Below, in pieces: positions 3,586 through 24,326 of a stretch of DNA of 32,000 nt (within the stretch, counting starts at the first letter, position 1; every line of letters begins with the position of its first letter). Source of the DNA: Candidatus Saccharimonadota bacterium (lineage in GTDB: Bacteria > Patescibacteriota > Saccharimonadia > Saccharimonadales > Saccharimonadaceae); assembly GCA_020160975.1 (NCBI GenBank), contig JAIUPJ010000001.1, positions 480,001 through 512,000 of the forward strand, given 5' to 3'. A model generated the notes under the pieces. The model saw only the letters and a program-made list of their open reading frames with translations, made no database searches and was not told where the DNA came from. Both the position numbers and the translations under genes were made by a program.

Positions 3586-4002
3586 ATGAAACGATCCCTC
3601 AAACTATTTAGCAGCTACGTTATCGCCGCATCAACCGTCCTTTTACTTGATCTCGCACAGGCTCATGCCGTCGGCACCATTACTGATGGGGCAGGGGCGG
3701 CACGGGGGCAACAGCAGCCAAATGACCTCTTTGGTGACAGTGGTGTGTTTTCAAAAATCAGCAGCGTACTGCTGTTCATCGTCGGTGCAATTGCCGTGAT
3801 TATGATTGTGATTGGTGGTCTCCGCTATGTTATCTCTGGAGGTGACGCCTCGCAAGTGCAATCAGCCAAAAACACCATTCTCTACGCTTTGGTAGGAGTG
3901 ATCGTGGCTATCCTCGCCTACGCAGCCGTCAACTTCGTGATTGGGAGCTTTGTCCCCAGCGGCACTACAGGCAGTAGTACCTACGGCGCCTCAACGCGAT
4001 AG
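3586..4002 (+). CDS. VirB2/TrbC-like T4SS pilin paralog (P0), outlying inverted copy
   Basis: Signal-peptide-like N-terminus (…LLLDLAQAHA), then two TM helices joined by the loop GGLRYVISGGDASQVQSAKNTILYA. The C-terminal half is nearly identical in protein to the 7035..7472 product. RBS CAGGAG lies ~10 nt upstream. Confidence 0.8.
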   Translation: MKRSLKLFSSYVIAASTVLLLDLAQAHAVGTITDGAGAARGQQQPNDLFGDSGVFSKISSVLLFIVGAIAVIMIVIGGLRYVISGGDASQVQSAKNTILYALVGVIVAILAYAAVNFVIGSFVPSGTTGSSTYGASTR

Positions 4003-4003
4003 C

Positions 4004-5377: not shown

Positions 5378-5431
5378 TGTTTTCACTATAGCAGAAGAAG
5401 AAGCGCCTCGACGGGGAGGGGGCCTCCCGCG

Positions 5432-5469
5432 CAAGAAATAAGACGACCTGATGGTCGTCTCATTTCTTG
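5432..5469 (-). terminator. hairpin immediately 3' of tRNA-Ser(UGA), overlapping the terminal CA of its CCA
   Basis: CAAGAAATAAGACGACC, loop TGAT, GGTCGTCTCATTTCTTG: 17 bp with 1 mismatch. The core ACGACC-ATCA-GGTCGT resembles the 3189-3226 hairpin. A second GC hairpin, GGGAGG-GGG-CCTCCC, sits at 5414-5428. Confidence 0.65.
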
Positions 5470-5555
5470 GCGGAGAGGGCGAGATTCGAACTCGCGGTGA
5501 GTTGCCCCACGCCTGTTTTCAAGACAGGTACCTTAAACCACTCGGCCACCTCTCC
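5468..5555 (-). tRNA. tRNA-Ser (anticodon UGA), long variable arm, encoded CCA
   Basis: Reverse strand reads GGAGAGGTGGCCGAGTGGTTTAAGGTACCTGTCTTGAAAACAGG...GCGAGTTCGAATCTCGCCCTCTCCGCCA. Anticodon stem CCTGT/ACAGG with loop CTTGAAA. Confidence 0.85.
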
Positions 5556-5598
5556 CTACGCACAAGACCGTTGCCATAAGCCACTCGGTCACCTCTGC
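5556..5598 (-). pseudogene. tRNA-Ser 5'-half remnant directly abutting the 5' end of tRNA-Ser(UGA)
   Basis: Reverse strand GCAGAGGTGACCGAGTGGCTTATGGCAACGGTCTTGTGCGTAG aligns with the first ~40 nt of the neighbouring tRNA-Ser (GGAGAGGTGGCCGAGTGGTTTAAGGTACCTGTCTTGAAA). It covers acceptor, D arm and anticodon stem up to CTTG, with no 3' half. Confidence 0.55.
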
Positions 5599-5632
5599 GT
5601 AAGTAGCATGTAGAATTATAACAGAGGCGAGA

Positions 5633-6301
5633 TCATTTTTCTAGAGGCTGCCTGGCAACAATCGCCAGCCACACTTCCGTCGCGCCGGCATCACGCAGTG
5701 CTTGCGCGGCAAACTCAACGGTCGCCCCTGTAGTGAAAATATCATCTATCAGCAGATATCGTCCTGGCTGTGCTGGACGGACACATGCAAACGCCTGCGC
5801 GGCCTGTTTGCGCCGGTCGCGCTTGCCTTTGCCCAACTGGCTTGTCGTCGTCACACGCTCAATAGCATGTTGATAAATCAATCCACGACGTTTTGCCAGC
5901 TCTTTAGCAACCAGCGCCGTATGGTCAAAGCCTCGGCGGCGAATATGTGGTGCAATCGTCGGTACCGGCACCACCACAACGTCTTCTGGCAGCACCGGTA
6001 GCGACAGGTCGAGCAACTGAGCCAACTCATGGTAGGCATCTTTTGCTCTCTCAAATTTGTATTGGTCAAGTAGGGCACGCAGAGCTGCTGATCGCTCACC
6101 AACGCACCACGCCCGGGAATAGGGAAGTATATGGTGTGAACACAGTGCCTCACCCCCGCCGACAGGCCCACTACATACCAAACAGGCTTCGTACTGTTCA
6201 CTTTCGATGTTGTATTTACAATACATACATAAAATCTGACCAATTGTGTCGCAAGACACACAGTAGTGGGGTGCGAGGACTCTCAGGGGCGATTCTAACA
6301 T
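5633..6301 (-). CDS. comFC: ComF family protein (ComFC-type phosphoribosyltransferase with N-terminal Cys-rich zinc finger)
   Basis: N-terminal CVSC...CMYC...CLVC...C cluster and a C-terminal PRTase motif YLLIDDIFTTGATV. 222 aa. Confidence 0.85.
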   Translation of the reverse strand: MLESPLRVLAPHYCVSCDTIGQILCMYCKYNIESEQYEACLVCSGPVGGGEALCSHHILPYSRAWCVGERSAALRALLDQYKFERAKDAYHELAQLLDLSLPVLPEDVVVVPVPTIAPHIRRRGFDHTALVAKELAKRRGLIYQHAIERVTTTSQLGKGKRDRRKQAAQAFACVRPAQPGRYLLIDDIFTTGATVEFAAQALRDAGATEVWLAIVARQPLEK

Positions 6302-6331
6302 TGTATTTTTTACCTATCAGACTGGATTTGG

Positions 6332-6360
6332 TTGATAATGCCACCTGGCTTAGTTATAAT
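6332..6360 (+). promoter_or_regulatory. sigma-70-like promoter for the hsp20 gene
   Basis: TTGATA (6332-6337), 17-nt spacer, TATAAT (6355-6360), ~45 nt upstream of the start. CTGGAT (6322-6327) and ATCCAG (6363-6368) flank it as an inverted repeat. Confidence 0.55.
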
Positions 6361-6405
6361 GTATCCAGACTAATTGTCAAAGCCTAGATAGAAGTGGAGG
6401 ATATC

Positions 6406-6882
6406 ATGGCACGCAAGCAAAATGACGATCTATTGATCGAGGACGAATTGGCTGCCGCATTTCTGAATGACGACAGTATGGCAGACGACAACGTTGCTGC
6501 ACCACAGCAAAGTTCGGCGTCGAACGACGATAATTGGGGTGAGAGTGAAGACGACTTTCCTGGTCAGCTCGCTGTTGATGTCTACGAGACTGACGAACAG
6601 CTGATTGTAAAAGCCCGCACCGCCGGTGTGAACAAAGAAGATCTCGATGTCAGCATTTCTGACGGCATCTTGACGATCAGCGGCACCCTGAGCAGTGGCG
6701 ATGACACCGAAGCTACCAACTGGCACATCCAAGAATGCTATTGGGGCGAATTCAGTCGTACGCTCGCACTACCAGTAGCCGTTAAGGAAGATGAAGTTGG
6801 CGCAGTTCTCAAAGACGGCGTTCTCAGCATTACCTTTAACAAGGTCAAGCAAGAGCAAGCCAAGAAGATTACGATTCAGTAA
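6406..6882 (+). CDS. hsp20: Hsp20/alpha-crystallin family small heat-shock protein
   Basis: Alpha-crystallin domain pattern (LAVDVYETDEQLIVKARTAGVNKEDLDVSISDGILTISG ... FSRTLALPVAVKEDEVGAVLKDGVLSITFNK). Start moved from GTG 6394 to ATG 6406, which has GGAGG 5 nt upstream. Confidence 0.9.
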   Translation: MARKQNDDLLIEDELAAAFLNDDSMADDNVAAPQQSSASNDDNWGESEDDFPGQLAVDVYETDEQLIVKARTAGVNKEDLDVSISDGILTISGTLSSGDDTEATNWHIQECYWGEFSRTLALPVAVKEDEVGAVLKDGVLSITFNKVKQEQAKKITIQ

Positions 6883-6905
6883 CGAATTGGTACAAAACAA
6901 GAACA

Positions 6906-6937
6906 TTACTCCGCCCCAAAAGCGGAGTAATTTTTTG
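6906..6937 (+). terminator. Rho-independent terminator of hsp20
   Basis: TTACTCCGC, loop CCCAAAA, GCGGAGTAA, followed by TTTTTT. Confidence 0.8.
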
Positions 6938-6974
6938 GTTCAGTCAAATTCAGTTGCCGTTGGCCGGACAATAT

Positions 6975-7003
6975 AATAACTCCCGCACTATGCGGGAGTT
7001 ATT
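6975..7003 (-). terminator. hairpin terminating the minus-strand pilin array
   Basis: Perfect 13-bp stem AATAACTCCCGCA / TGCGGGAGTTATT with loop CTA, 30 nt beyond the stop of the last pilin gene. An A/T-rich run follows on the minus strand. Confidence 0.7.
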
Positions 7004-7034
7004 GTTCATGTTGTCGAGACGGTCAGGGTATTAC

Positions 7035-7472
7035 TTATCCCTGGCTGTTTGCCGCGAAACTTCCGATCACGAAGTTGACTGCTGCGTAGGCGAGAATAGC
7101 AACCACGAGACCAATGATAGCGTATAGAATTGTATTCTTGGCACTGGTTACCGCCGAGCTATCACCCTGAGAAACGGTATAGCGAATACCGCCGATAATC
7201 AACATGATGACCGATACCGCACCGATGATGAACAGCAACACATTTGTTACTGTCTGGAAGATACCACCGTTCCCAAATAGGTTGTCTGGCTGGTCGCCAC
7301 CCTTGGCGCATTTTGCAGCGTCACTGAGGCCGCCAGAGACAAGACCTGTACAGTTAGCATCTTGTGCATAGGCTGGTGCCGCCACTACGCCGAGAACCAA
7401 AGCTGGTACAGCCAGGAGTCCAAGCAAGGTATTCTTGATATTCATTTTCATTACGATTTCATTTCCTTTCAT
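7035..7472 (-). CDS. VirB2/TrbC-like T4SS pilin paralog (P1)
   Basis: Signal peptide ending AAPAYA, a Cys pair (NCTG...AKCAKG), then the two-TM hairpin core LLFIIGAVSVIMLIIGGIRYTVSQGDSSAVTSAKNTILYAIIGLVVAILAYAAVNFVIGSF. The start is ambiguous: ATG 7472, or ATG 7451 (MKMNIKN). Confidence 0.85.
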   Translation of the reverse strand: MKGNEIVMKMNIKNTLLGLLAVPALVLGVVAAPAYAQDANCTGLVSGGLSDAAKCAKGGDQPDNLFGNGGIFQTVTNVLLFIIGAVSVIMLIIGGIRYTVSQGDSSAVTSAKNTILYAIIGLVVAILAYAAVNFVIGSFAANSQG

Positions 7473-7542
7473 TCATGTGGATTATCACTTAGTTATAGTT
7501 ATAGCAGAATTGTGGCTCGATGTTAAGGATTTGACGACTGTT

Positions 7543-7962
7543 TTATGGGGTCTTAGTGGTTGTCGTGTTGGTTGTGGCTGGCTTGGCAGCGAAACTCGTC
7601 ACCACGAGGTTAACGATTGCGTAGGCAATCAACGCCACAATTAGCCCGATAACCGAATAGAGAATCGTATTCTTGGCACTAGTTACCGCTGAACTATCGC
7701 CCTGAGATGTCGTGTATTTGATGCCTCCAATGATAATCATGATGACTGCAACGGCACCAAGAATGTAGAGTAGAACATTGACGACCGTCTTGATGATATC
7801 ACCGACGCTAGCGCTGCCACCGGTACCACCGGTCGAAGTAACACCGTCATTGATACATGATGCTGCGCTCTTACAAGCCGCAAGCACCGCTGGGCTTGTT
7901 ACTGCAGCCACGCCGAGAGCGACAGCCAGAATGATTACCGATACTGTGAGTTTGCTTTTCAT
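7543..7962 (-). CDS. VirB2/TrbC-like T4SS pilin paralog (P2)
   Basis: Signal peptide ...SPAVLA, Cys pair ACKSAASC, core GGIKYTTSQGDSSAVTSAKNTILYSVIG, and a T-rich C-terminal tail. AAGGAG RBS lies directly after the P3 stop. Confidence 0.9.
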   Translation of the reverse strand: MKSKLTVSVIILAVALGVAAVTSPAVLAACKSAASCINDGVTSTGGTGGSASVGDIIKTVVNVLLYILGAVAVIMIIIGGIKYTTSQGDSSAVTSAKNTILYSVIGLIVALIAYAIVNLVVTSFAAKPATTNTTTTKTP

Positions 7963-7973
7963 CTTTTTCTCCT

Positions 7974-8342
7974 TTATCCAAAGTATTCCGTTACAAGTAG
8001 TACGATTCCTCCCGCCATAAGTGCTACCACCAGGCCAATCACGGCGTAGAGAACAGTATTTTTGGCAGAACTAACCGCTGAGGCGTCTCCCTGCGACAGT
8101 ACAAAGCGCAGTCCGCCAATCACGATCATCAATACCGAGATCGCACCCAGTGCCCCAAGAACTACCTGCATGATTGTCCAGACGATATTGGTGTTGTCGG
8201 CTTTGAGCTTATCTTCCTTTACGACAGTACAGTCTGCGTCGGTACAGGTTGCAAATGGATCGTACGCCGAAGCGGGGGTCATCGAGACCAGCCCTAGGCC
8301 TGCCACCAAAACAATCGCTGCCAGAAGTAGCCGCCGCATCAT
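7974..8342 (-). CDS. VirB2/TrbC-like T4SS pilin paralog (P3)
   Basis: Signal peptide ...TPASA, Cys pair ATCTDADC, core GGLRFVLSQGDASAVSSAKNTVLYAVIG. The likely ATG at 8342 overlaps the P4 stop as TGATG. The ORF track starts it at GTG 8345. Confidence 0.88.
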   Translation of the reverse strand: MMRRLLLAAIVLVAGLGLVSMTPASAYDPFATCTDADCTVVKEDKLKADNTNIVWTIMQVVLGALGAISVLMIVIGGLRFVLSQGDASAVSSAKNTVLYAVIGLVVALMAGGIVLLVTEYFG

Positions 8343-8635
8343 CACTTAAATGTCCCCAGTACAATTGAGGTTACAACAAAAGCCATTAGTACAAAAATCA
8401 AGCCAATCACTGCACCCAAAATCGCGTTTTTTGCCCGGGTGAGCTTGCTCGGGTCACCACCCGACGTGGTGTACATAAATCCCGCCACGACGATCACGAT
8501 CACTGCCACCACACCCGCCCAGAAATACACTGGCAGGAGAACTGAGGATATAAAACCGCTGTCACTGCCACCATTTGGCTTGGGAATCCCTAGGTTTGAA
8601 GCGTCAACGAGAGCTGCAATTATTCGTTCATTCAT
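8342..8635 (-). CDS. VirB2/TrbC-like paralog (P4), divergent: no signal peptide and no Cys pair
   Basis: 97 aa. The core AGFMYTTSGGDPSKLTRAKNAILGAVIG is retained between two TM helices. The start ATG overlaps the P5 stop (TAATG). Confidence 0.8.
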   Translation of the reverse strand: MNERIIAALVDASNLGIPKPNGGSDSGFISSVLLPVYFWAGVVAVIVIVVAGFMYTTSGGDPSKLTRAKNAILGAVIGLIFVLMAFVVTSIVLGTFK

Positions 8636-9045
8636 TATTTGATTACTCCTGCCACCGCATTGACAATCGAAGCAGACAAAATGGCGATCACCAGACCAAT
8701 CACTGCATTCGTAATCGTCCGGCGCGCATTCGCCATGCCGTCAGACGAACCAGCACTGGTCATATAATCAAAGCCCCCCTTGATGATAAAAAATATCGTC
8801 ACATACGCCACAATTACCATCAATGCCTGGATAATATTCAACCCAATCTTGAGTGCAAAGTTCCGTGCGCCCGTATCGGTATTATCCGGTGCTTTGATGT
8901 TACAGTTGCCATCCTGTAGCCCGCGGTACCAGGCAGGAATCGCAAACATTGTATCGGTACAGGCAGCAGCCGGGGCTGCAAACGCCGCACCGCTGCCGAG
9001 CATGGTGATTGCAAGCATCATACTTAAGTATATTCGTTTCATCAT
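8635..9045 (-). CDS. VirB2/TrbC-like T4SS pilin paralog (P5), divergent
   Basis: Signal peptide ...GAAFA, Cys pair (AACTD...GNCNIK), core GGFDYMTSAGSSDGMANARRTITNAVIG. The start overlaps the P6 stop (TGATG). Confidence 0.8.
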   Translation of the reverse strand: MMKRIYLSMMLAITMLGSGAAFAAPAAACTDTMFAIPAWYRGLQDGNCNIKAPDNTDTGARNFALKIGLNIIQALMVIVAYVTIFFIIKGGFDYMTSAGSSDGMANARRTITNAVIGLVIAILSASIVNAVAGVIK

Positions 9046-9446
9046 CAGCCGATTACTCCTCCTGGAATAAGCCAGTTTAGTGCAAAATACATGAGCCCGT
9101 ATGCCACCAGGCCAATCACCACATTGGTAATCATTCCCTTGGCTTTCGAAACTTGTTCGTTGCTACCGCCCGCGCTCGAGTACATGATGCCTGCGTAGAC
9201 CAGCACGCCGACAGCCACCAGGCCTACACCAGCAGTCAGGATGTTGATCCCCCAGACCAGCAGCATGAAGACACCGGTGTTTGAGACATCCCCACCTTTA
9301 CCCGGTTGTGATGTTGCAGCGTCACAGATGCTCTGCGGCAAAATCGAGCAAGTCACGTCAGCCGCTGCAACTGGCGCAGCATTCATTAGTGGCACCAGCA
9401 CACCAATCGACAGAAGGAGAGTGCGAAAAATGTTGGTATATTTCAT
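9045..9446 (-). CDS. VirB2/TrbC-like T4SS pilin paralog (P6), first gene of the array
   Basis: Signal peptide ...APVAA, Cys pair (VTCSILPQSIC), core AGIMYSSAGGSNEQVSKAKGMITNVVIG between two TM helices. Confidence 0.8.
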   Translation of the reverse strand: MKYTNIFRTLLLSIGVLVPLMNAAPVAAADVTCSILPQSICDAATSQPGKGGDVSNTGVFMLLVWGINILTAGVGLVAVGVLVYAGIMYSSAGGSNEQVSKAKGMITNVVIGLVAYGLMYFALNWLIPGGVIG

Positions 9447-9460
9447 AATGTGTTCATTAA

Positions 9461-9466
9461 ATTATA
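9461..9466 (-). promoter_or_regulatory. candidate -10 box (TATAAT) for the pilin array
   Basis: The reverse strand reads TATAAT, 14 nt upstream of ATG 9446, with no SD in between. The -35 position reads TGGCAT (weak) and lies inside the tandem GGTTATGC repeat. Confidence 0.4.
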
Positions 9467-9643
9467 CCTCTAGTGTACTGGTTATGCCATGGTTATGCAA
9501 AAAAACCTAATGTTATCTGTTGCAAACCTGGGCTTCAAAGCCTGTTCATTCGCACCGTACAGCGGCCACAACCCCAGGCACGACAGGTCTGGGCATGAAA
9601 GGGAGGTGGGGGAAAGAATTTTGAAAATTCAAGATTGCAAGCA

Positions 9644-9672
9644 TTGACTTTTTGGGTCATCTATGGTAATAT
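9644..9672 (+). promoter_or_regulatory. sigma-70-like promoter for the T4SS operon
   Basis: TTGACT (9644-9649), 17-nt spacer, TAATAT (9667-9672). ATG 9682 is only 9 nt after the -10 box, which implies a leaderless or near-leaderless mRNA. Confidence 0.55.
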
Positions 9673-9681
9673 TAGATAGAT

Positions 9682-12600
9682 ATGTGGGAGTCTTTCAAGA
9701 TCATCTCGCACGGTAGAATATCGTTGCGACGTCTTTCCCTGTTGGCCACCTCTGTTCTGATGGCTATATTTTTGGCAACAGGTGTCATTGTACCCACCGT
9801 CCTCGCTGCCGATGCTGTCCGTAGTGGCAACACCGTCACCTACGAGGGAAAAACCTACCAACCTATCGACAAAACCGCCACGCCGTCGCAAGTACCAGCC
9901 GGCCTGCCGACTACTGAGGGTTATGTTTCCTTTGATACGAGTGGCAAAAAGGCCTACTACTTGCTGACAAATGGCCCTGCTGCTAGCTCCACCACTGCTA
10001 CCTATACCGTCTATGATATGCCTACGATGGGCTCGTATGGCAATCACTCGCCACCGACAAACATCGCCATCGTTAGTAGCCCAGTCTCTGCCGCCACCCA
10101 GCAAAATAGCGGTACCACCTGTGATAGCACCCAAACGGCCGGTATCGGCTGGATTCTTTGTCCTGTGGTCAATTTCCTGGCAAAGAGCATGGATTACATC
10201 TACAAAGTCATCGCCGACTTCCTGGTGGTGCGGACTATCACCACCGACACATCTGGTGCACTCTACCACATGTGGGCCATCATTCGCGATATCGCCAACC
10301 TCTGTTTCGTTGGCGTATTTTTGGTGATTATTTACTCGCAAATCAGCGGCCTCGGTTACAGCAACTACAATCTCAAAAAGATGCTGCCGCGGCTGATAAT
10401 TGGCGCGATTTTGGTGAACACTTCGTTCTGGATCTCTGCACTGGCGGTTGATGCTTCAAACATTCTTGGCGTTTCGATTCACGACGTCTTCATGACCGTC
10501 ATGCAAAACCTCAACACCAACGGCAACTACGACAGCGTCACCGTGCCCGATTGGCAGTCAATCACCATCATAGCGCTGAGTGGTAGCGCCGCGACTGCTG
10601 GCCTGACAATCTTTGTGCTAGCAAATACCGTCACTGGTGCGCTGGCACTACTCATCCCAGCATTGGTTGGCGTACTTCTGGCAGCACTAGTGGCATTCGT
10701 GGTGCTGGCCGCTCGCCAAGCGCTCATCGTCTGCTTGGTTATCATCTCGCCGCTGGCGTTTGCCGCTATGTTGCTGCCAAACACCGAAAAATACTTCGAC
10801 AAATGGCGTGGTGCGTTGACCACACTCCTCCTTTTGTTTCCGATATTCTCCGTCATTTTCAGCGGTGCACAGCTAGCAGGTATGGCCATCGTCCAGAGCG
10901 CTGGCGGCAACCTCGTCACGATTATCCTCGGTATGACTGTTCAAGTCGCCCCGATTGTCATCACGCCGCTGCTCGTCAAGTTCAGCGGGGGATTAATCGG
11001 TCGCATCGCCGGTATGGTCAATAATCCAAATAAGGGCTTGCTCGACCGCACCAAAAACTGGAGCAGGGGCCTCGCTGCCGAGCGTCGCAACCGCGCTATC
11101 GCTGGCCGCATGATGTCCGACGGCACCACCCAGCTCAAGCGTCGCCACGTACCGACTGCTTATCTTGACGCCCGTCGTCGGGCAAGGGAAGGCCGGCGCA
11201 AAGCCTATGAAGCAGGTGCAGAAGCACGCTTTAGTGGCACTCGGCAAGGTCATGATGTCGAAGCGCTCAATAAGCACTATGGCAATGTCAAAGCACGCAA
11301 CGAAAACCGATTTGCTGCATCACCTCGTGGCAATCGCCTGGAAATCGAAGCTCGCCACATTGCAGTCGACAAGCAGAATATTGAGACACAAATGATGAGC
11401 GATCCTGAGCATGGATACAAACTCCGAACTCGTCAGCGAGACGCCGAGACGGCCAAACTCAATGCTGACAGCAAATACCTCCAAGATGAGCAAGGACAAA
11501 AGGCCGAGTACCGGTCACGCATGGCGAATGTTCGCAAAACGCTCGCCGAATCTAAGTTCGAAGAGACCTCGATGGGGGCGCGTGTGGATATGGCAAAGCG
11601 CGAAGTAGAGCGTCGTAAGCACACTGCCGAGGCCCATCATGAGCAAAGCTGGCATTTCCGCAACCAGACCGATGCTGGCTCGCAAGAGCGGGAAATGAAA
11701 CTGCGAATCTCAACAGACGGCGCTTCGGCAGCCAAAGCGAAAGTTGATGCTATCTACAACGAGCTCAAACTCGATAACACCTCAGGGCTTACTACAACTA
11801 TGCTCAACAGCGTGAAAGACCAACTAGGAAAAGAAGCGTTCCAAGTCGCTCTCGAGACAAACCTCACCGCCAAACGCTCTGCCACGGCCGATAGTGAGCT
11901 CAAGTCAAAGATAAACAAAGAGTTGCTTACCGATGGTGTAACCTACCAACTCGATATGCATGGCAACAAGGTTTTAGACGCCAGCGGTAGCCCTATTGTT
12001 GCTAGCAGGATTACTGTTGACGGCAAAACTCTCCAGGACTATGCTACCGGCATTGGTAAACGCGAGCTCATGCTGGCAAACTCCGTTGCAGAAGATCGCG
12101 CCGATTGGGGTAAGCAGGCGCAGGCCGCAAGTGAACTCATCGCTCACTTCAAACTCGATAGCAACGCCGTCCAAAAACTAGCGATAGGCGGAGAAGGTAG
12201 CGACCCTGGTGAAAGGTATGTCACAATAAAAGATGATAGCGGCAACGAGTTTACCTTTGACGCGGCCGACGAATACGTCAAAGAAGCAGCAATCTCAAAG
12301 CAGTTCAAAGCTGGTTCATATGGCCAAAAAATGGCTATTCTCAAGGAGACTGGAGAAAACATTGCTATCAAAGACGCCTCTGGCAATATTGTTGGGCACC
12401 GAACAGGCTACAACTACCATCACCGAGCAACCGCCCAGTCTGATGCAATTGCCTCTGGTATCGCCGGTCTGGCGCCATTCATCAACGACGTAACCTACAA
12501 TGAAATCCTCAAGGGTAATTTCAATGGTGATGATAGTATGCGTATGCATGCACTGCGTCAGGTGTTTGAAGGTCGTATAAAAGCAAGCAACCTCACTGGC

Positions 12601-12921
12601 GCAAACCAAGATGCGCTCTCGATTCTCTACGATCTTGGACGACTCAAAGAAAGTGCCGACCCAAGCAAGCGTGCAGAATACGACCGTTACAAGACGATGT
12701 TGACAGAGTTCTTTGGCGACTCATACGGCACCGATTCCGCTATGTACAAAGCTGCTACAACCAACTTCGACAGCGTCTTTGACGAGAAGTGGCGTGGACT
12801 CCTCAGTACCACAAAGGGCATCATGGAAAACTCAAACCTCAACAGCAATACTGCAGACGAGGCGAAGAAAGTCATGCGCGACATCCTTGTCGAAGAGGGC
12901 GTTACTTTCCGCGAGCGATAG
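9682..12921 (+). CDS. VirB6/TrbL-like polytopic T4SS channel protein, paralog 1, with a ~600-aa charged helical C-terminal extension
   Basis: 1079 aa. Signal or anchor sequence, a ~130-aa exported domain ending in the motif CDSTQTAGIGWILCPVVNFL, a multi-TM block (about 160-470), then a long K/R/E/A-rich region. The N-terminal ~470 aa align by eye with the 13956..16445 product. Confidence 0.75.
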   Translation: MWESFKIISHGRISLRRLSLLATSVLMAIFLATGVIVPTVLAADAVRSGNTVTYEGKTYQPIDKTATPSQVPAGLPTTEGYVSFDTSGKKAYYLLTNGPAASSTTATYTVYDMPTMGSYGNHSPPTNIAIVSSPVSAATQQNSGTTCDSTQTAGIGWILCPVVNFLAKSMDYIYKVIADFLVVRTITTDTSGALYHMWAIIRDIANLCFVGVFLVIIYSQISGLGYSNYNLKKMLPRLIIGAILVNTSFWISALAVDASNILGVSIHDVFMTVMQNLNTNGNYDSVTVPDWQSITIIALSGSAATAGLTIFVLANTVTGALALLIPALVGVLLAALVAFVVLAARQALIVCLVIISPLAFAAMLLPNTEKYFDKWRGALTTLLLLFPIFSVIFSGAQLAGMAIVQSAGGNLVTIILGMTVQVAPIVITPLLVKFSGGLIGRIAGMVNNPNKGLLDRTKNWSRGLAAERRNRAIAGRMMSDGTTQLKRRHVPTAYLDARRRAREGRRKAYEAGAEARFSGTRQGHDVEALNKHYGNVKARNENRFAASPRGNRLEIEARHIAVDKQNIETQMMSDPEHGYKLRTRQRDAETAKLNADSKYLQDEQGQKAEYRSRMANVRKTLAESKFEETSMGARVDMAKREVERRKHTAEAHHEQSWHFRNQTDAGSQEREMKLRISTDGASAAKAKVDAIYNELKLDNTSGLTTTMLNSVKDQLGKEAFQVALETNLTAKRSATADSELKSKINKELLTDGVTYQLDMHGNKVLDASGSPIVASRITVDGKTLQDYATGIGKRELMLANSVAEDRADWGKQAQAASELIAHFKLDSNAVQKLAIGGEGSDPGERYVTIKDDSGNEFTFDAADEYVKEAAISKQFKAGSYGQKMAILKETGENIAIKDASGNIVGHRTGYNYHHRATAQSDAIASGIAGLAPFINDVTYNEILKGNFNGDDSMRMHALRQVFEGRIKASNLTGANQDALSILYDLGRLKESADPSKRAEYDRYKTMLTEFFGDSYGTDSAMYKAATTNFDSVFDEKWRGLLSTTKGIMENSNLNSNTADEAKKVMRDILVEEGVTFRER

Positions 12922-12949
12922 TAGCCACCACAGGAATATTACCTAGTAG

Positions 12950-12978
12950 TTGACAATTATAAGCATATGGTGTATAAT
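12950..12978 (+). promoter_or_regulatory. perfect-consensus sigma-70 promoter inside the T4SS cluster
   Basis: TTGACA (12950-12955), 17-nt spacer, TATAAT (12973-12978). A 62-nt leader follows, with AAGGAG at 13022-13027 before ATG 13041. Confidence 0.65.
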
Positions 12979-13955: not shown

Positions 13956-16445
13956 ATGAAGCTTAGTAAGGTGAGTGCATCTCGGCGATTATTGTTTATA
14001 CCGATCGCACTTTTTGCGCTTGCCACGATTATCGGTCAATCTCTCGTGGCGCCAGCCTCTGCTGCGCCTACCAAACAAGAGTGTTGGGATCAGCTGAACA
14101 ATAAACCTTATGAATATTCTAGGCAGACGATAGACAAGCAAAATCTGATAAATAGCTGTAAAAGTGCAGGGTTTTGTACTGTATCATCGTTTGACCTTGC
14201 TACCAATATCACAACATTATCCTGCGCCAACCCTAGTAGCCTTGGCAGCACCACAGTAGGAAAGACCGACGCGGAAGTAAAGCCACTTGTCACACTAGTG
14301 TGCGGCAACACACCTACTAGTGATCGGCTAATGGACGCCTATGTCCAGTGTGGCGACAATGTACGCAAGATATATTCATCCTGCAATTACACAGGTGGAT
14401 CCATCACTTCAAACATGCAAGATACTGTGGCAAATTCTAGTAAGTGTGTTTATGGTAAGCTCTCGAACCCTAAACCCTCTGCTAGCGCTGTCACCGATGC
14501 GGTGCAGGCGGGCAGAAATGCAGCAAACAATATTGTAGATGGAGCAATTGCAGATCAGGCAAAAAAAGAATTGCAGGCAAAATGTGACGAGCGTGCCAAG
14601 GCTGGCGAAAACGTAGAATGGAATGGAACAGAGTGTGCTCCAAAGGCCGATAGCAAAACAACCTGTGCAGTCAACGGCATTGGTTGGATCGTCTGCCCTG
14701 TTATGAACTTTCTCAGTAGTTTGATGGACAAAATGATCAAGTTCCTTGGTGAAAACTTCTTGCAGACAGAAGCCGACCTAGTCCAAGCAAATGACAGCAA
14801 CGGGACATATGTTGCCTGGAAAGTATTCCGCAATTACGCAAATGTCGCATTCATTGGGGTATTCTTGTTTATTATTTATTCTCAAATAACTGGTGCGGGT
14901 GCATCAAATTACGGCCTTAAACGCATGTTGCCACGACTTATCACAGCGGCGATCTTGGTTAATGTATCGTTCTTTATCTGCCAACTGGCCATTGATGCAA
15001 GTAATCTAGTAGGATTTGGTATATCTGAGTTATTCAATGGCATTACCCAGCAAGTAGCTACGAGCGGTACAGCCCAAACTACAGGTGCAGGTAGTTGGGA
15101 GAGTACGATCGGTGCAGTAATGATTGCTGGTGTCGGACTAGCGCTTGCGCTTGCGCTAGGTATTCTTGTACCCGCACTTTTAGCTGCACTTATGATTGTC
15201 ATCATATTGCTGATTCGAAAGGCGCTCATTGTTCTATTGATCGTAGTTGCGCCTCTTGCATTTGTTGCCTATTTACTCCCAAACACCGAGCAATGGTTTA
15301 AAAAATGGTATAAAATGCTGTTCAACCTACTCATGGTCTTTCCTATTATTGCTGCAGTGTTCGGAGGTAGCAAACTGGCTGCATCTATCATCAACACTAT
15401 AGGCGCTACCGCGACTAATGCAGCCACAGGCGAAGAAGATGCAAAGTTATCCTTGCAACTTATCGCACTTGGCATCACTGTTGTACCGTTCTTTGTTGTT
15501 CCAGCGTTACTAAAAGGCGCTATTGCTGCGTCCGGAGCTATCGGCGCAAGACTCGGTAATTATAGTGATCGCGCCAATAAGCGTGTTGGCGCAAGAAGCA
15601 AAGAGGGCTATCTTGGTCGGCAAATGGCCGAACGGAAAAAACTTGCTGCAGCGCGTAATGCTCAGATAGCAGGTGGAACCTACAAAGGTAAATACGGAAA
15701 ATGGAATCCTCGAAATCTCCGAAGCGCGACCTCAGGTGTACTGAACAGATCGAAAGTCACTGGACGAGCGGGTGATCGCATGGGCGCAATCGGTGCAGCA
15801 GTGTCGCAAAAAGACCAGAGTGAAGAGGTAGAGAACGAAGTGGCTCGCATGTCCAGTGAGTGGGGGCCCCATGAGGAGCTCAGCAAGGCATCGGAAGCAT
15901 ACGCAGCGGCATTGCATAGTGGAGATGTAGTTAAAGCACGCGCTGCGCAAAAGATACTTCTAGGTAAGGGAAATGCTGGAATTGCCGAGATTCGAAAGGG
16001 CGTTGCTTCCACAGACTCTATGTCAGACCAGCAAAGACTTGACAACAAGGCAATCGCTTACGCAAGAGGGGACTTAGCCTCTGCGGGCATTAAGGGTAAA
16101 GATGCCGCACTGAATGCCTGGAGCTATGATTCAAAGAGCAGGTCACTATCAAGTCATGATGCTAGTGCAGGTACGTTCGATGGGCTTACGGATGCAGAAA
16201 TGGCGGGGCAATCGGCAGGAAGTCTCGAAAAGGCGATTTCGGCAGGTGGCCTCACGGCTGAAAGAGCTGCTGGTATGCAGGATAATCCTAACGTATGGCA
16301 AAACCTATCAGAAGATAAAAGGAAAGTCATCATTGGAGCCCAGACTCGCGTCAGAGATACTGGTGCTGCACACGAAGAGGCGCTCGCACAAAATGCACTA
16401 TACGACATGAATAATAAAAATAACGGGCCTAGTTCAAACCCTTAG
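13956..16445 (+). CDS. VirB6/TrbL-like polytopic T4SS channel protein, paralog 2, with a Cys-rich exported N-domain
   Basis: 829 aa. Signal peptide ...APASAAP and a ~230-aa domain with ~12 Cys ending in CAVNGIGWIVCPVMNFL. Shares with paralog 1 the blocks FIGVFLFIIYSQITGAGASNYGLKRMLPRLI, AILVNVSFFICQLAIDASN and VAPLAFVAYLLPNTEQWFKKW. A/K/G-rich C-terminal tail. Confidence 0.75.
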   Translation: MKLSKVSASRRLLFIPIALFALATIIGQSLVAPASAAPTKQECWDQLNNKPYEYSRQTIDKQNLINSCKSAGFCTVSSFDLATNITTLSCANPSSLGSTTVGKTDAEVKPLVTLVCGNTPTSDRLMDAYVQCGDNVRKIYSSCNYTGGSITSNMQDTVANSSKCVYGKLSNPKPSASAVTDAVQAGRNAANNIVDGAIADQAKKELQAKCDERAKAGENVEWNGTECAPKADSKTTCAVNGIGWIVCPVMNFLSSLMDKMIKFLGENFLQTEADLVQANDSNGTYVAWKVFRNYANVAFIGVFLFIIYSQITGAGASNYGLKRMLPRLITAAILVNVSFFICQLAIDASNLVGFGISELFNGITQQVATSGTAQTTGAGSWESTIGAVMIAGVGLALALALGILVPALLAALMIVIILLIRKALIVLLIVVAPLAFVAYLLPNTEQWFKKWYKMLFNLLMVFPIIAAVFGGSKLAASIINTIGATATNAATGEEDAKLSLQLIALGITVVPFFVVPALLKGAIAASGAIGARLGNYSDRANKRVGARSKEGYLGRQMAERKKLAAARNAQIAGGTYKGKYGKWNPRNLRSATSGVLNRSKVTGRAGDRMGAIGAAVSQKDQSEEVENEVARMSSEWGPHEELSKASEAYAAALHSGDVVKARAAQKILLGKGNAGIAEIRKGVASTDSMSDQQRLDNKAIAYARGDLASAGIKGKDAALNAWSYDSKSRSLSSHDASAGTFDGLTDAEMAGQSAGSLEKAISAGGLTAERAAGMQDNPNVWQNLSEDKRKVIIGAQTRVRDTGAAHEEALAQNALYDMNNKNNGPSSNP

Positions 16446-16459: not shown

Positions 16460-17506
16460 ATGGCGGTATACAAAGTCGCACAAGATGTAGAGGCAGATGA
16501 CAAGCTCATCGGGCCGTTTAGTTTTCGCCAGTTTGTCTACCTGATCATCGTGGCGCTGGCTGGGGCGCTGGCGTGGGGATTATCACGTGTTTTTACCCCG
16601 CTTTTCGTCCTGCCTTTACCGATCATAATTTTCTTTGGGGCGCTGGCACTACCGTTACGCAAGGATCAACCGATGGAGGTCTACCTAGCTGCCCTAGTGT
16701 CGTTCTATCTCAAACCTCGGCGTCGTCTCTGGGTACCTGATGGGGTGGAATCGCTGATCGAAATCACCGCACCAAAAATTGTCGAGGTGCAACGCACAAA
16801 AGACCTCTCCCAGGTAGAGGCAGAGAAACGACTCAGTTACCTGGCTGACATTGCCGACACTGGCGGCTGGGCGATTCGCCACACCACCGATCCATTCATG
16901 AACACTGCCATGAACAATGACGCATGGTTCGCTGCCCAGCAGACCGAGGACATGCTTGATAGCAGCGGGGGTATTGCTCAGTCATTTGACACCATGATCG
17001 CTCAGACCGACGAGCGCCGACGCCAAGAGATGGTCGAGCGCATGCACAATACCCAAGTTGCGGCATCACAACAAGCTCCTCAACCCCGTGTCACGCCGCT
17101 CGCTGACCCCTATGCCAATCTGTCAACACCTCAGCAACCCTCTCCAGTGGCACCTCAAGGTCAGACATCGCCAACCTTTGCACAATCTCCTGCGCCAGCC
17201 GCTGACGAACCATTCACGCAACCTCAATACAATCCGTACCCGACGTCGATCCACCAAAGTGTCATCCAGCCGCTTAGTCAACCTCAACCACAAACTACCC
17301 AGCCACCCGTTTCAACCCCTGACCAGACAACCCCGAGCCTAGGAGCCGAAAATACTAGCGTAAGCACTAGCGAGAAGCCTATCTCACCTGATATAATTAA
17401 TCTTGCAAACAACTCCGATTTATCTATCGAGACGATTCAGCGTGAGGCTGACCGTATCAGGAAGAAAGAAGAAGACGATGGTGAGGTCTTCATCTCGCTT
17501 CACTAA
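16460..17506 (+). CDS. PrgI/VirB3-like T4SS membrane protein with a long P/Q-rich C-terminal extension
   Basis: The N-terminus VAQDVEADDKLIGPFSFRQFVYLIIVALAGALAW plus a second TM matches the PrgI-family layout as I recall it. Residues ~190-300 are P/Q/S/T-rich. 348 aa, against ~100-130 aa for typical VirB3/PrgI. Confidence 0.65.
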   Translation: MAVYKVAQDVEADDKLIGPFSFRQFVYLIIVALAGALAWGLSRVFTPLFVLPLPIIIFFGALALPLRKDQPMEVYLAALVSFYLKPRRRLWVPDGVESLIEITAPKIVEVQRTKDLSQVEAEKRLSYLADIADTGGWAIRHTTDPFMNTAMNNDAWFAAQQTEDMLDSSGGIAQSFDTMIAQTDERRRQEMVERMHNTQVAASQQAPQPRVTPLADPYANLSTPQQPSPVAPQGQTSPTFAQSPAPAADEPFTQPQYNPYPTSIHQSVIQPLSQPQPQTTQPPVSTPDQTTPSLGAENTSVSTSEKPISPDIINLANNSDLSIETIQREADRIRKKEEDDGEVFISLH

Positions 17507-20301: not shown

Positions 20302-23049
20302 ATGGCAGATCCTGACGACCGAATCGGCGATAAATTTGAACAGGGCAAAGGCGCTTACTCAACAGCAGGTGATCTAAAAGACGCAGAAAACGCCAACAGC
20401 ACCTACCAGGACGGCGAGGGAAGTACCGAGCAACCCGGCGATGCCGTCCGCGATGCCGAATCATCCTCCAGCGGATCGTGGAGTACAAATCTCGATAGCT
20501 TCAGGGATAGTAACAATACAAATAAATCCGCCAATCCAGTGGTGACTGTCCTCAAAAAAGGCGGCCCGGGTGGAATTATGGGTGGCGGGCTTATCGCTTT
20601 TCTTTTCATGTCTTTTTTTGTCGCCCCAGGCTCACTGCTAATAAATCTCAAAGAAAACTTCGTTGCAAACTTTGATCAACAGGCCGTTACAGCTCAAAGT
20701 CGCACCAACCGAATGATGGTAAAGCGTCTCACCGACACAGATACTAAGGGCGCATGTACTACAATCAAGCTCGCGTGTAAGTATACAAAACCAAGCAAAC
20801 GGTTCTTAACGAACCTCAATGATGCCGGCATCAAAGCTATTGCTGCTGATGGTACCGAAATGACTCCAGATGACCAGCGATGGGGGAGTAGAGAGCGTCC
20901 TGCCAAGTACAAACTAGCCGACGGTTCGCTTGAGTTCAATGCTAAGGAATTTAACACCGCTCTCCGCAACAATCCTGCCGTACGGGTTGCCTTTACAAAA
21001 GCTCACAATCCACGTTGGGTGAATTGGGTGGACAAAAAAGCCATAACATTTTTTCAAAAAAATGGTGCTTCAAAGCTTGTCAGCAAGATTTTTAGCGAAA
21101 AGGATGTTAAAGCCCGACAAGATGCATTTGATGATTTACTAAAAAATAAGAATACCAGTGCCACAGCAGTAAAAGATGCTGTTAATAGTGAAGGTAAAAA
21201 ACTCGCAAAATCAACCGCAAAAAAAATTAGCGGTAAGACTGATGCGGTATTTATTGGAACAGCAGTTGCATGCGCGGGATTTAAAGTACCCGGAGCAGTC
21301 AGTAATGTTTTTCGTGCGTACAGAATGCGTAATGTGATTGCCGCTGGGTTTGTATTCCTGACGCTTGCGGATGCTATTAAATCCGGCAGCGATGTCACAC
21401 CGGAACAATCCTCGGCAGCAGGCGACATGCTCACTGCAGTAGTAGCTGGTAAGTCTGCTATGGATGGGTCAGTAAAGTATGGATTATTCAAGGACGCCGC
21501 TTCAGCATCGAATTCTTCGTCATTAAAAAAATTTATGCCCGGTGCTGGACTTGGCATACTTGATACATTTAACAAAATTGCCAATGGAAAGGCAGCTCAG
21601 CAGTCCTGTGCCGTGGCAAATAGTGCCGAACTTCAAGCAGTGGTAGCGGCAGCAAAAATTGCAAACTCCTGGAACCCTGCTGGGTGGATAGCAATCCTTG
21701 AAACTGTAGTAGCGTTTGCTGGTTCGGCTCTTATTGGCAAGATTATCGAAGTTTCAGCACCGTATATTATTGATTTTATGAGTGGGCTAATCGACTGGAA
21801 TAAAGCACTTGACCTGATTATCGGCAATGACGCAGTTGGAGTGACGGGAGAAGAATTGGGTGATGTCGTATCACTCGGTGGTGCACTCGGTATGGGGCAA
21901 CTCGCTAATCAAGGTGGCAATATACCCCTGACGCCCGCTCAAAAAGTTGCCTTCGACCAGTCAATTACAACCCCAACACAGTTAGCCTGGGCAGAAGAAG
22001 ACCGACTCACCCATAGTCCACTCGACGCGACAAACCCAAACACTGCGCTCGGTGCTATTACTACAAAACTTCTCCCGCTCATGGCAAGTGTTCGATCAGC
22101 AAGTAGTTTTCTCACGCTATTACCACAAACCTCATTGGGTGGTTTTGGCTCAATGCTCCGTAGCCAATCGGTACATGCAGCCAGTGAGGCAGACTGGGAG
22201 CTCTGCAAGGACGATTATGCAATTAAAGCATCGGGAGTCGCAGCCGGGCCACTATGCGACATACAATATGGGGTACCTGCAGAATATATGGGTCTTGACC
22301 CAGAAGACGTGCTGACCCACCTGAAAGATCTCGACCAAATAGATGATGAAGGAAATCCGAAATCAGGCAGTGATCTTGAGGAGTATGTCGCTGCTTGTAA
22401 TGATGGACTACCGTCAATCCCTGATGACTGCATCATAACACCAGGAGACGACAAAAGTGCGTATTTTGCGCTATATCAGATCGATACCAGAGTTATCGAC
22501 ACTATGGATAACGAGCCACCTACACCGGGAGGAGGTGGCAGTAGTGGTAGTGCAACAACTGGCGGGGGAGCGGTGTCTGGGTCTGATATTGAAATCGCCA
22601 AGATGATCGTCGCTAATCCAAACATCGCGGTAGATAGTAAGTATGCAGGGCAAATACAAGCATATGCCAATGGAGACACGAGTTGTAGAATAGATTCCAG
22701 TATTCTCAAGCTCATCGCAACACTTGGGCAGTCTTTCAAGATTACTATATCCTCACTCAATCGATTCTGTACCAACACTCTTACCGCATCTGGAGCAAGA
22801 AGTCTTCATTATGCAAGCGGCGGGGGAGGTGCGGTGGATATATCAATTATCAACGGCACCCCAGCTAGTGGTGGTAATGCAGCTGATATAGAGGTCTACA
22901 ATCGGGCGCTAAGCATCCTACCAGACAGAAAACTTGAACTCGGCCAAATTAACTGTCGGCCAGCAAGTGCTGTCGTAATTCCTCCAGGCAATAGTTCTGT
23001 TCAAGTTACCGACTCCTGTAACCATGTACACATCGGAGTTTACCCGTGA
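20302..23049 (+). CDS. large membrane-anchored protein with a C-terminal LAS-type (M15-like) zinc peptidase domain
   Basis: 915 aa. Acidic disordered N-terminus, one TM (GIMGGGLIAFLFMSFFVAPGSLLI), a ~600-aa central region, a Gly-rich linker (PPTPGGGGSSGSATTGGGAVSGS), then SLHYASGGGGAVDI ... DSCNHVHIGV (H-x-D and H-x-H metal-ligand pattern). Confidence 0.7.
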   Translation: MADPDDRIGDKFEQGKGAYSTAGDLKDAENANSTYQDGEGSTEQPGDAVRDAESSSSGSWSTNLDSFRDSNNTNKSANPVVTVLKKGGPGGIMGGGLIAFLFMSFFVAPGSLLINLKENFVANFDQQAVTAQSRTNRMMVKRLTDTDTKGACTTIKLACKYTKPSKRFLTNLNDAGIKAIAADGTEMTPDDQRWGSRERPAKYKLADGSLEFNAKEFNTALRNNPAVRVAFTKAHNPRWVNWVDKKAITFFQKNGASKLVSKIFSEKDVKARQDAFDDLLKNKNTSATAVKDAVNSEGKKLAKSTAKKISGKTDAVFIGTAVACAGFKVPGAVSNVFRAYRMRNVIAAGFVFLTLADAIKSGSDVTPEQSSAAGDMLTAVVAGKSAMDGSVKYGLFKDAASASNSSSLKKFMPGAGLGILDTFNKIANGKAAQQSCAVANSAELQAVVAAAKIANSWNPAGWIAILETVVAFAGSALIGKIIEVSAPYIIDFMSGLIDWNKALDLIIGNDAVGVTGEELGDVVSLGGALGMGQLANQGGNIPLTPAQKVAFDQSITTPTQLAWAEEDRLTHSPLDATNPNTALGAITTKLLPLMASVRSASSFLTLLPQTSLGGFGSMLRSQSVHAASEADWELCKDDYAIKASGVAAGPLCDIQYGVPAEYMGLDPEDVLTHLKDLDQIDDEGNPKSGSDLEEYVAACNDGLPSIPDDCIITPGDDKSAYFALYQIDTRVIDTMDNEPPTPGGGGSSGSATTGGGAVSGSDIEIAKMIVANPNIAVDSKYAGQIQAYANGDTSCRIDSSILKLIATLGQSFKITISSLNRFCTNTLTASGARSLHYASGGGGAVDISIINGTPASGGNAADIEVYNRALSILPDRKLELGQINCRPASAVVIPPGNSSVQVTDSCNHVHIGVYP

Positions 23050-24326
23050 TGATTATGCGCGCAATTCTAATAGCAATTGCCGTTATCGTGGCGACACCGC
23101 ATCATGCTATCGCCGCAGGATTTAGCCCTCAGTTCTACTCTGGCAATGATATCTTGTTTTATGACCCTCGCGCCACAGCCTGCACCTCAAATTCAAGCGT
23201 ATCATCAAGTGGTGCAGGCATCTCTAGTGCCGACGAAAACAAAAATGCCGAAGCAATTCTCCGCTATCTCACCGGTAAAGGTATGACACTAGCCCAGGCT
23301 GCTGGGTTTGTCGGCAACATGAAGCAAGAGTCGGGCCTTAATCCTGCAATTATTCAGGGTGGAGGAATCGCCGATAGCTCTTATACACCAGTTAATGGAG
23401 TTGGCTTTGGACTAGTACAGTGGACATTCTCCACGCGCCAAGGTCCGCTCGTAGAACTTGCAACCTCAACTGGTCGACCAGTCACTGATATTAATTTACA
23501 GCTCGATTACGTCTGGCAAGAGATAAATGGTGGATGGAAATCAACCCTTCAAGCCCTCGCCGCTAATCCTTCCGTCACACCTACAGAAGCAGCAGCGATT
23601 GTTCATGGAAATACACATTTTGGCAGCGACCCGCGATTTACCAATGCACCACGACTAGGGTACGAAGCCTCTGCAGACTCAGCCGACGCCGTCTATCGAG
23701 TGCGCGGGGGAAATGCTGAGTATTTCTATAATATGTTTCGCTCGCAAATCCAGGATGGCGCAGGGATTAGTGCAGACACAACTACCACTGGTGGAGCAGT
23801 TGTTAGTACGACAAGTTCATGCTCCCTGGGTAGTTATGCGGCAACAGGCACTTGTCCACAAACTGCACCGGTTTACGGCGAGGGTGGCAACGGTAGACAA
23901 CTTCGCCAAGCTGATTTCGAAGCAATTTATGGTGTAGGCGGGCCAGATGTAGAGCCTAACCTTGTATCAGTAGATTTCCTCGGTAAGCCTGTTCAGGTTC
24001 ACAAGCTCGCTGCAGCCTGTCTGCAAGCAGTAGTCGACGATATAAATAAAGCGGGTATCAGCTACACCATCAATCAAATTGGAGGATACCGGGGGAGTGG
24101 TGGTGCGGGCGCGGCCGCACTCAAGGACGGTTACCACTATTATGGTTTAGCAGTCGACATCAATTGGGATACAAATCCGTATATACGCGGAAGAGGCGTC
24201 TCTGCTCCATACGACATGCCACAACAGTACGTCGATATCTTTCATGCGCACGGCTGGTCGTGGGGTGGTAACTGGAATAGCGCCAAAGATTATATGCATT
24301 TTGAATTTAATGGCCTAGGCCCATAA
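23049..24326 (+). CDS. secreted bifunctional cell-wall hydrolase: lysozyme-like (phage tail lysozyme type) N-domain plus M15 D-Ala-D-Ala-peptidase-like C-domain
   Basis: Signal peptide ...ATPHHAIAA. N-domain AILRYLTGKGMTLAQAAGFVGNMKQESGLNPAI...GFGLVQWT. C-domain DGYHYYGLAVDINW...HGWSWGGNW..AKDYMHFEF. The ATG overlaps the previous stop (TGATG); the ORF track starts it at GTG 23046. Confidence 0.8.
   Translation: MIMRAILIAIAVIVATPHHAIAAGFSPQFYSGNDILFYDPRATACTSNSSVSSSGAGISSADENKNAEAILRYLTGKGMTLAQAAGFVGNMKQESGLNPAIIQGGGIADSSYTPVNGVGFGLVQWTFSTRQGPLVELATSTGRPVTDINLQLDYVWQEINGGWKSTLQALAANPSVTPTEAAAIVHGNTHFGSDPRFTNAPRLGYEASADSADAVYRVRGGNAEYFYNMFRSQIQDGAGISADTTTTGGAVVSTTSSCSLGSYAATGTCPQTAPVYGEGGNGRQLRQADFEAIYGVGGPDVEPNLVSVDFLGKPVQVHKLAAACLQAVVDDINKAGISYTINQIGGYRGSGGAGAAALKDGYHYYGLAVDINWDTNPYIRGRGVSAPYDMPQQYVDIFHAHGWSWGGNWNSAKDYMHFEFNGLGP

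Follow-up and report, generated by a model that had tools for sequence, protein, structure and literature searches.

We analysed a 32,000-nucleotide (nt) stretch of a Candidatus Saccharimonadota bacterium (assembly GCA_020160975.1, contig JAIUPJ010000001.1, positions 480,001 to 512,000; hereafter the window) that contains seven related small genes, named P0 to P6. Six of them stand in tandem on the minus strand (9446..7035) and one lies on the plus strand (3586..4002), and all seven open reading frames (ORFs) are present as an earlier note on this DNA had described them. The array is oriented divergently from a Gram-positive-type type IV secretion system (T4SS) operon, past which lie dnaN and dnaA, followed by yidC and jag (Table 1). 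The earlier note had read the seven genes as paralogous VirB2-like T4SS pilins. This reading holds up, as the Pfam family PF18895 (T4SS_pilin) is matched by all seven proteins, T4SS genes are adjacent and a weak TrbC/VirB2 signal is present.

Table 1. Pilin genes, expression signals and neighbouring genes in window coordinates, with sizes in amino acids (aa); protein segments are predictions.
Feature	Coordinates	Strand	Description
P6	9045..9446	-	Array gene 1; 133 aa; signal peptide, Cys33/Cys41 in exported segment, two-helix hairpin
P5	8635..9045	-	136 aa; signal peptide, Cys29/Cys48, hairpin
P4	8342..8635	-	97 aa; short; 27-aa N-tail and hairpin only; no signal peptide, no Cys
P3	7974..8345	-	122-123 aa; start ATG 8342 or GTG 8345; signal peptide, Cys pair, hairpin
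P2	7543..7962	-	139 aa; signal peptide, Cys30/Cys36, hairpin, Thr-rich C-tail
P1	7035..7451	-	138 aa; last array gene; longest ORF reaches 7472
P0	3586..4002	+	138 aa; inverted, monocistronic, 3 kb from array; no Cys; Ser/Thr-rich tail
Promoter-like TTAACA-17-TATAAC	7498..7526	-	P2-P1 spacer; read in the sequence
Promoter-like ATGGCA-18-TATAAT	9461..9490	-	Upstream of P6; from consensus scan only
Hairpin with U-rich tail	6978..7001	-	35 nt past P1 stop; -23.1 kcal/mol, z -4.8
Second hairpin, bidirectional	6905-6931		From sequence scan
Extended VirB6/TrbL-like	9682..12921	+	1079 aa; divergent from array; TrbL PF04610 E 1e-3; TrbL_3 in sister strain
Second VirB6/TrbL-like	13956..16445	+	829 aa
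PrgI (VirB3-like)	16460..17506	+	PF12666, E 8e-12
TrsD-like	17539-18459	+	306-aa ORF; NCBIfam TrsD, E 3e-5
VirB4-type ATPase	18395-20296	+	633 aa; TraG P-loop, AAA_10, DUF87
Cell-wall hydrolase, VirB1 analogue	23046..24326	+	Lysozyme PF18013 E 5e-24; M15 peptidase PF13539 E 2e-17
tRNA-Ser(tga)	5468-5555		3' end at 5468

Hydropathy segments place two long hydrophobic helices in every member, after the signal peptide where one is present, and an AlphaFold model of P2 predicts helices at residues 53-85 and 90-125 with a predicted local distance difference test score (pLDDT) of about 90. Six of the seven proteins are predicted to begin with an N-terminal hydrophobic signal that ends in an AxA-like site. 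A signal peptide had earlier been attributed to each copy, which is right for these six but not for P4, which has neither a signal peptide nor cysteines; an N-terminal hydrophobic segment is likewise absent from 91% of P4 orthologs. The loop motif proposed at the same time is indeed shared but is looser than had been stated, with four invariant columns among the seven proteins and AG rather than GG in P4 and P6. Identity within the array is 22-55%, P6 is the paralog that diverges most, and the exported N-segment and the C-tails are the variable parts of the pilins. The P2 C-tail (7543-7580) ends PATTNTTTTKTP and that of P0 (3960-4002) ends SGTTGSSTYGASTR. On a VirB2-type filament, these Thr/Ser-rich tails would lie at the surface, and they might carry glycans.

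The first four genes of the array are closely joined. The overlapping stop and start codons reported for P6/P5/P4/P3 are readily found in the sequence: the P6/P5 junction reads TGATG (1-nt overlap at 9045), the P5/P4 junction reads TAATG (1-nt overlap at 8635) and the P4/P3 junction reads GTGATG, with a P3 start at GTG 8345 or ATG 8342 that overlaps the P4 stop. P3 probably starts at ATG 8342 (122 aa), which matches the call in a sister strain, and the most likely start of P1 is ATG 7451 (MKMNIK), as in the sister-strain call, rather than 7472. The P3/P2 junction reads TAA-AGGAG-aaaaag-ATG and thus contains the Shine-Dalgarno sequence that had been noticed directly after the P3 stop, giving P2 its own AGGAG 6 nt ahead of the ATG. 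A spacer of 70-90 nt separates P2 from P1, and the hairpin that follows P1 at 6978..7001 is the probable terminator of the array. The inverted gene P0 has an AGGAG of its own at 3570-3574.

Assignment to PF18895 is well supported by profile scores. Against a gathering score of 26.6 bits, six of the seven proteins pass (P0 36.1, P1 38.9, P2 47.6, P3 28.5, P4 35.7 and P5 33.2 bits). P6 falls slightly short at 23.8 bits, yet it is recognised by a leave-one-out hidden Markov model (HMM) of the other six (E=1.6e-10), and orthologs of the P6 position match the family. PF18895 was matched by all 133 of 133 orthologs taken from 19 loci. The proteins also have the core of this family, which comprises about 70 aa with two hydrophobic helices and a short polar loop, and the neighbouring T4SS genes that accompany it (9682-24326). 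A search with P2 returned 2,346 matches in Candidatus Saccharibacteria/Saccharimonas, with identity of up to 98% and PF18895 present in all cases among the 120 matches listed; in the closest loci of the genome collection, P2 identity reaches only up to 67%. A tblastn search of 72,556 plasmids with P2 gave zero matches, and the window pilins are thus not close to any plasmid-borne pilin.

The adjacent T4SS is of the Gram-positive, MPF_FATA-like type, and the presence of dnaN/dnaA and yidC/jag beside its operon indicates a chromosomal locus next to the replication origin. All seven pilins weakly match the Mbov_0395 pilin-like family NF045849 (best P4 with 38.7 and P2 with 37.5 bits; all below the cut-off of 40 bits), in keeping with the MPF_FATA ancestry that has been proposed (Quinonero-Coronel et al., 2025; PMC12102498). 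VirB4 function looks split in this operon, where a TrsD/VirB4-N-terminal-like ORF overlaps the start of the ATPase ORF by ~65 nt, a layout like that of SEML1_0009/0008 of Southlakia epibionticum ML1 (Se ML1).

Comparison with Se ML1 places the locus within a published system. Its gene order runs dnaA, dnaN, the T4SS genes SEML1_0006-0013, the pilins 0014-0019, Hsp20, a ComF-like gene, tRNA-Ser, a membrane protein and the inverted pilin 0024 (Wang et al., 2023, Cell; PMC10633639, Table S1), and the window is collinear gene for gene with SEML1_0006-0024. In that work PF18895 was assigned to 0014-0019 and PF04956 to 0018 and 0019 (PMC10633639, Table S2). Collinearity and the shared family thus identify the window array as an ortholog of the published system. 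Transposon sequencing (Tn-seq) in Se ML1 scored the six array pilins GD/ES/ES, whereas SEML1_0024, the ortholog of P0, was scored NE/NE/NE with 22-23 surviving insertions and is non-essential (PMC10633639). A later survey found VirB2-like pilins in 1,948 candidate phyla radiation (CPR) assemblies and 441 arrays of 2-11 VirB2-like genes across 383 Patescibacteria assemblies (Quinonero-Coronel et al., 2025, bioRxiv 10.1101/2025.01.22.634366; PMC12102498). The earlier view that multi-copy virB2 arrays occur mainly in Anaplasmataceae is thus outdated, given these 441 arrays and the essential six-gene array reported from Se ML1 in 2023. The window locus is a further copy of a feature described in 2023-2025 and is not categorically new.

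We then compared the array across Saccharibacteria, using 80 loci fetched with P2 as query, whose ORFs were all scanned with an HMM built from the seven window proteins. Six to eight pilin ORFs were found in 71 of 81 sources (the 80 loci and the window). The common order is P6, P5, a short P4, P3, P2, a spacer and P1, usually with an inverted P0-like gene 1.5-3 kb beyond. Strictly canonical examples of this layout number 43 and near-canonical ones about 28; copy number, which the earlier note had suggested comparing, recurs as 6+1 in most loci. In 35 of the 43 canonical loci the outlier pilin is inverted, and in the other 8 it shares the strand of the array. Most Saccharibacteria loci keep an inverted seventh pilin at the same relative place; published descriptions count six pilins.

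Each position in the array has its own lineage. The nearest neighbour in another genome occupies the same position in 43 of 43 cases for P6, P4 and P1, in 42 for P5 and P0, in 40 for P2 and in 35 for P3, which indicates seven old orthogroups rather than recent duplicates. P1 and P0 are conserved most (core identity 0.71 and 0.69) and are also closest to each other. The P5 and P3 classes retain their cysteine pairs, that of P5 being present in 34 of 36 orthologs. Decaying duplicates were considered as a further possibility and rejected, since purifying selection is strong and about 80 genomes are free of frameshifts.

The same comparison bears on the suggestion that the genes belong to an unrelated family of proteins with two transmembrane (TM) segments, such as holins, and lie near a T4SS by chance. 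Small two-TM proteins are easily confused, and our structural searches were non-discriminating. Linkage of the array to the T4SS operon is nevertheless constant, with no loss seen in about 80 genomes; the essentiality pattern equals that of the T4SS genes in Se ML1; and the PF18895 matches are consistent. No holin family was matched; the earlier note had named such a family as the outcome that would overturn its reading. We rejected holins and regard a chance association of this kind as scarcely credible.

The expression layout of the array is conserved along with its gene order. The first three junctions are overlapping or have spacings of ≤4 nt in 40-42 of the 43 canonical loci, which shows that the tight P6-P5-P4-P3 coupling proposed earlier is real and is kept across Saccharibacteria; median spacing is 12 nt at the fourth junction and 77 nt at the fifth. 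The promoter-like motif TTAACA-17-TATAA(C/A) of the P2-P1 spacer recurs across lineages, where a match of at least 10 of 12 positions is found in 42% of loci versus 2.2% of control windows. This site lies outside our consensus scan, which accepts only T as the sixth base of the -10 hexamer, and was judged by its cross-genome enrichment.

Variation between strains offers a further way to separate possible roles of the paralogs. The sister strain L082 (269-kb contig) has 97.5% DNA identity to the window over 1-11450, and its pilins are 96-100% identical in protein sequence, with ratios of non-synonymous to synonymous substitution rates (dN/dS) of 0-0.2. All seven pilins together differ from those of L082 by 11 non-synonymous and 42 synonymous changes, and the few replacements fall mostly in signal peptides, exported N-segments and C-tails. 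Strain-level diversification under relaxed or positive selection, of the Anaplasma/Bartonella type, was seen neither in the dN/dS values against L082 nor in 41 close locus pairs.

The adjacent VirB6-like genes behave differently from the pilins. In the first (1079 aa), residues 1-560 are 96-100% identical to L082 and residues 600-1079 are 18-40% identical, while the second (829 aa) is divergent over its whole length (23-70% identity). The blocks replaced in L082 span 11450-12944, which encodes the C-terminal ~480 aa of the first VirB6-like protein, and 13211-16459, which comprises most of a 286-aa ORF and the second VirB6-like gene. The pilin array is conserved in full throughout the 41 close locus pairs, whereas coverage of the upstream VirB6 block is only 32-90% in most of them. 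The divergent VirB6 blocks resemble swappable specificity or effector cassettes.

These data can be set against the proposal that cells deploy the paralogs as alternative pilins, singly or in varying mixtures, to adapt the surface of the secretion system to different host strains or to evade recognition, as proposed for virB2 paralogs of Anaplasma and Bartonella. High divergence within the array (22-55% identity) and the location of the variation in the exported N-segment and C-tails would suit such a role, and the idea has been voiced for CPR arrays in the 2025 survey (PMC12102498). P0, whose ortholog is dispensable in Se ML1, could be an alternative to P1 of this kind. Each position is, however, a separate orthogroup conserved across Saccharibacteria, so that the divergence is ancient and does not reflect ongoing diversification. 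Close strains are near-identical in their pilins (96-100%, dN/dS 0-0.2), Se ML1 needs every one of the six array genes, and the variation that does exist between strains lies in the adjacent VirB6-like genes. We therefore consider alternative pilins distinctly unlikely. Alternative surface or host-specificity variants had been one of two readings in the earlier note and are disfavoured by the ancient position-specific orthogroups, by purifying selection and by the requirement for six genes in Se ML1; the other, a heteropolymeric fibre, fares better of the two, though it is not demonstrated.

Orthogroups and near-invariance between strains together favour fixed, non-redundant subunits over interchangeable host-specificity variants. 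We think it likely that the seven genes encode VirB2-like pilins of a chromosomal, origin-proximal T4SS, orthologous to SEML1_0014-0019 and SEML1_0024, and that they are fixed parts of one heteromeric conduit. In such a system, six of the seven pilins would be exported via Sec with a cleavable signal peptide, and P4 would insert as a hairpin, probably through YidC. All seven would be membrane-resident two-helix hairpins whose basic loop faces the cytoplasm, and the VirB4 ATPase, acting on a VirB6/PrgI platform, may extract and polymerise them. The product would be a single heteromeric pilus-like conduit that passes through a wall hole made by the lysozyme/peptidase and points toward the host bacterium. 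Gene organisation suggests that P6-P5-P4-P3 are made in equal and low amounts, probably as minor or initiating subunits. P1, with its own conserved promoter-like motif and the highest conservation, is likely the main shaft subunit, and P0 may be a dispensable, separately transcribed relative of P1.

An older interpretation would make the same proteins small Sec-secreted effectors delivered to the host. Work on TM7x labelled these genes as putative effectors or as a Sec-secreted array and noted differential expression on host encounter (cited in PMC12102498), and the signal peptides on six of the seven proteins are compatible with secretion. Effectors would, however, fit poorly with a pilin family matched by all members and with the absence of a signal peptide from P4, and the two long hydrophobic helices in every member mark these proteins as integral membrane proteins. 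We accordingly regard the effector interpretation as very improbable.

Several observations weigh against the conduit interpretation. No copy in the window reaches the gathering score of PF04956 (TrbC/VirB2; 27.9 bits), the sole match being P4 at 18.1 bits (E 3e-3). Among the orthologs, PF04956 is matched by 43 of 133 at E<=0.01 (best E 2.4e-7), and these matches, weak to moderate and from a third of the orthologs, make a link to VirB2/TrbC plausible at the superfamily level only. In an hhalign comparison, the pilin orthologs matched a narrow Agrobacterium-type VirB2 profile with 4.3% probability and E 0.0096, which is not significant; its 35 aligned columns do fall in the expected register (pre-TM1/TM1/loop). 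That profile consisted of 8 alphaproteobacterial VirB2/TrbC proteins from plasmids, recovered via an Agrobacterium VirB2 that was 100% identical to the annotated virB2. Sequence-profile searches of the PDB with pilin alignments returned no solved pilin, and a Foldseek comparison of the P2 model with PDB structures yielded only hairpin matches that were non-significant and non-specific. The two-helix hairpin, as modelled, is a non-discriminating fold. The division into major and minor subunits is drawn from gene order, coupling, the promoter-like motif and conservation rather than from abundance. Polarity of Tn-seq insertions on downstream genes could inflate the essentiality of upstream genes, and a T4SS pilus has been observed in no Patescibacterium, with reviews calling the pilus a possibility.

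Some of these points would suit pilin-fold membrane subunits that form no filament and instead make up a translocon ring or line a channel around VirB6/PrgI. Gram-positive T4SSs normally lack pili, and a T4SS pilus of Saccharibacteria has never been seen. The proteins bear a weak likeness to the two-TM conjugation proteins DUF6112 and Mbov_0395 (38.7 bits, cut-off 40), and the hairpin fits ATP-synthase c subunits as well as it fits pilins. Signal peptides and disulfide-capable exported segments, on the other hand, suggest an extracytoplasmic part, the nearest curated relatives are pilins, and six distinct essential copies exceed the needs of any known translocon accessory. A translocon role without a filament is, in our estimation, unlikely, and we retain the heteromeric conduit as the preferred explanation.

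A more specific version of the heteromeric conduit can be outlined tentatively, and we hold it to be possible but doubtful. It would be the first known heteromeric VirB2-type filament, with P6-P5-P4-P3 as a translationally coupled 1:1:1:1 initiating or tip complex (one member of which is signal-less), P2 as an adaptor, P1 as the major shaft subunit with a promoter of its own and P0 as an optional alternative shaft subunit. Specificity would then come from the swappable C-terminal cassettes of the VirB6-like proteins and not from the pilins.

The surroundings of the array contain other features of interest. In the window (6394-6882), L082 and Se ML1 alike, an Hsp20 gene separates the array from a ComF-like gene; this conserved neighbour has no evident connection with the T4SS and was scored essential in Se ML1 (Wang et al., 2023; PMC10633639). 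Within 4 kb (window 1545-5555), on the side of the array where P0 lies, there are three genes for tRNA-Ser (gga, gct, tga) and one for tRNA-Arg. In the sister strains L081 and L083, synteny stops exactly at the 3' end of tRNA-Ser(tga) (window 5468). The element integrated at this tRNA-Ser in L081 (12350-20420) lies 3 kb from the chromosomal pilin array and encodes a serine recombinase, ArdA, a DNA methylase, a Replic_Relax relaxase and a TraG/TrwB-like coupling protein. No T4SS genes of its own were found in its visible part. The chromosomal T4SS has neither a relaxase nor a coupling protein and might mobilise this element.

Patescibacteria, Saccharibacteria among them, live as obligate epibionts. 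No T4SS other than theirs is known to be essential to its own bearer, and theirs is also the only monoderm T4SS with VirB2-like pilins. The comparative results, in which the pilins resemble fixed components of a single machine and the VirB6-like proteins vary between strains, sharpen the question of its role and shift emphasis away from published speculation about 'versatility'. New here are the recurrent 6+1 layout and its orthogroups, the conserved junctions and promoter-like motif, the signal-less P4 and the contrast between pilins and VirB6-like proteins; the residual value of the analysis thus lies in position-specific orthology, a conserved expression architecture and invariant pilins beside variable VirB6-like proteins.

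Comparison with known systems helps to define what is distinctive about the array. Canonical VirB2/TrbC/TraA pilins (PF04956) have in common with the proteins studied here a signal peptide, a pair of hydrophobic helices linked by a short basic loop, and VirB3/VirB4/VirB6 homologs as gene neighbours. They belong to diderm systems with one pilin, whereas the present system is monoderm, has an MPF_FATA-like machine and seven paralogs, and lacks VirB5. Minor pilins of type IV pili and type II secretion systems are encoded in operons of divergent subunits that are made in fixed low amounts, each of them required, alongside one abundant major subunit. The fold and machinery of these minor pilins and pseudopilins are unrelated, and the likeness is a functional analogy from gene organisation. 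Mbov_0395, from a Mycoplasma integrative and conjugative element (ICE), is likewise a two-helix protein (80 aa) of a monoderm T4SS but is a single copy on a mobile element.

Tandem arrays provide closer parallels. The virB2 clusters of Anaplasma/Ehrlichia and Bartonella also comprise several tandem virB2-like genes beside a T4SS. Their copies are thought to vary antigen or host interaction (as cited in PMC12102498), whereas the genes described here form conserved orthogroups under purifying selection. The Se ML1 array shares the gene order, the Pfam family and even a short third member (SEML1_0016, 312 nt); it comes from another species, and array essentiality is known from Se ML1 alone. The Patescibacteria arrays surveyed in 2025 (PMC12102498), like that of the window, consist of PF18895/PF04956 genes near virB4 and dnaA, are abundant in Saccharibacteria and lack a nearby relaxase. 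The survey emphasises that arrays vary internally and suggests versatility in host range, whereas the present analysis finds position-specific orthogroups and invariance at the strain level.

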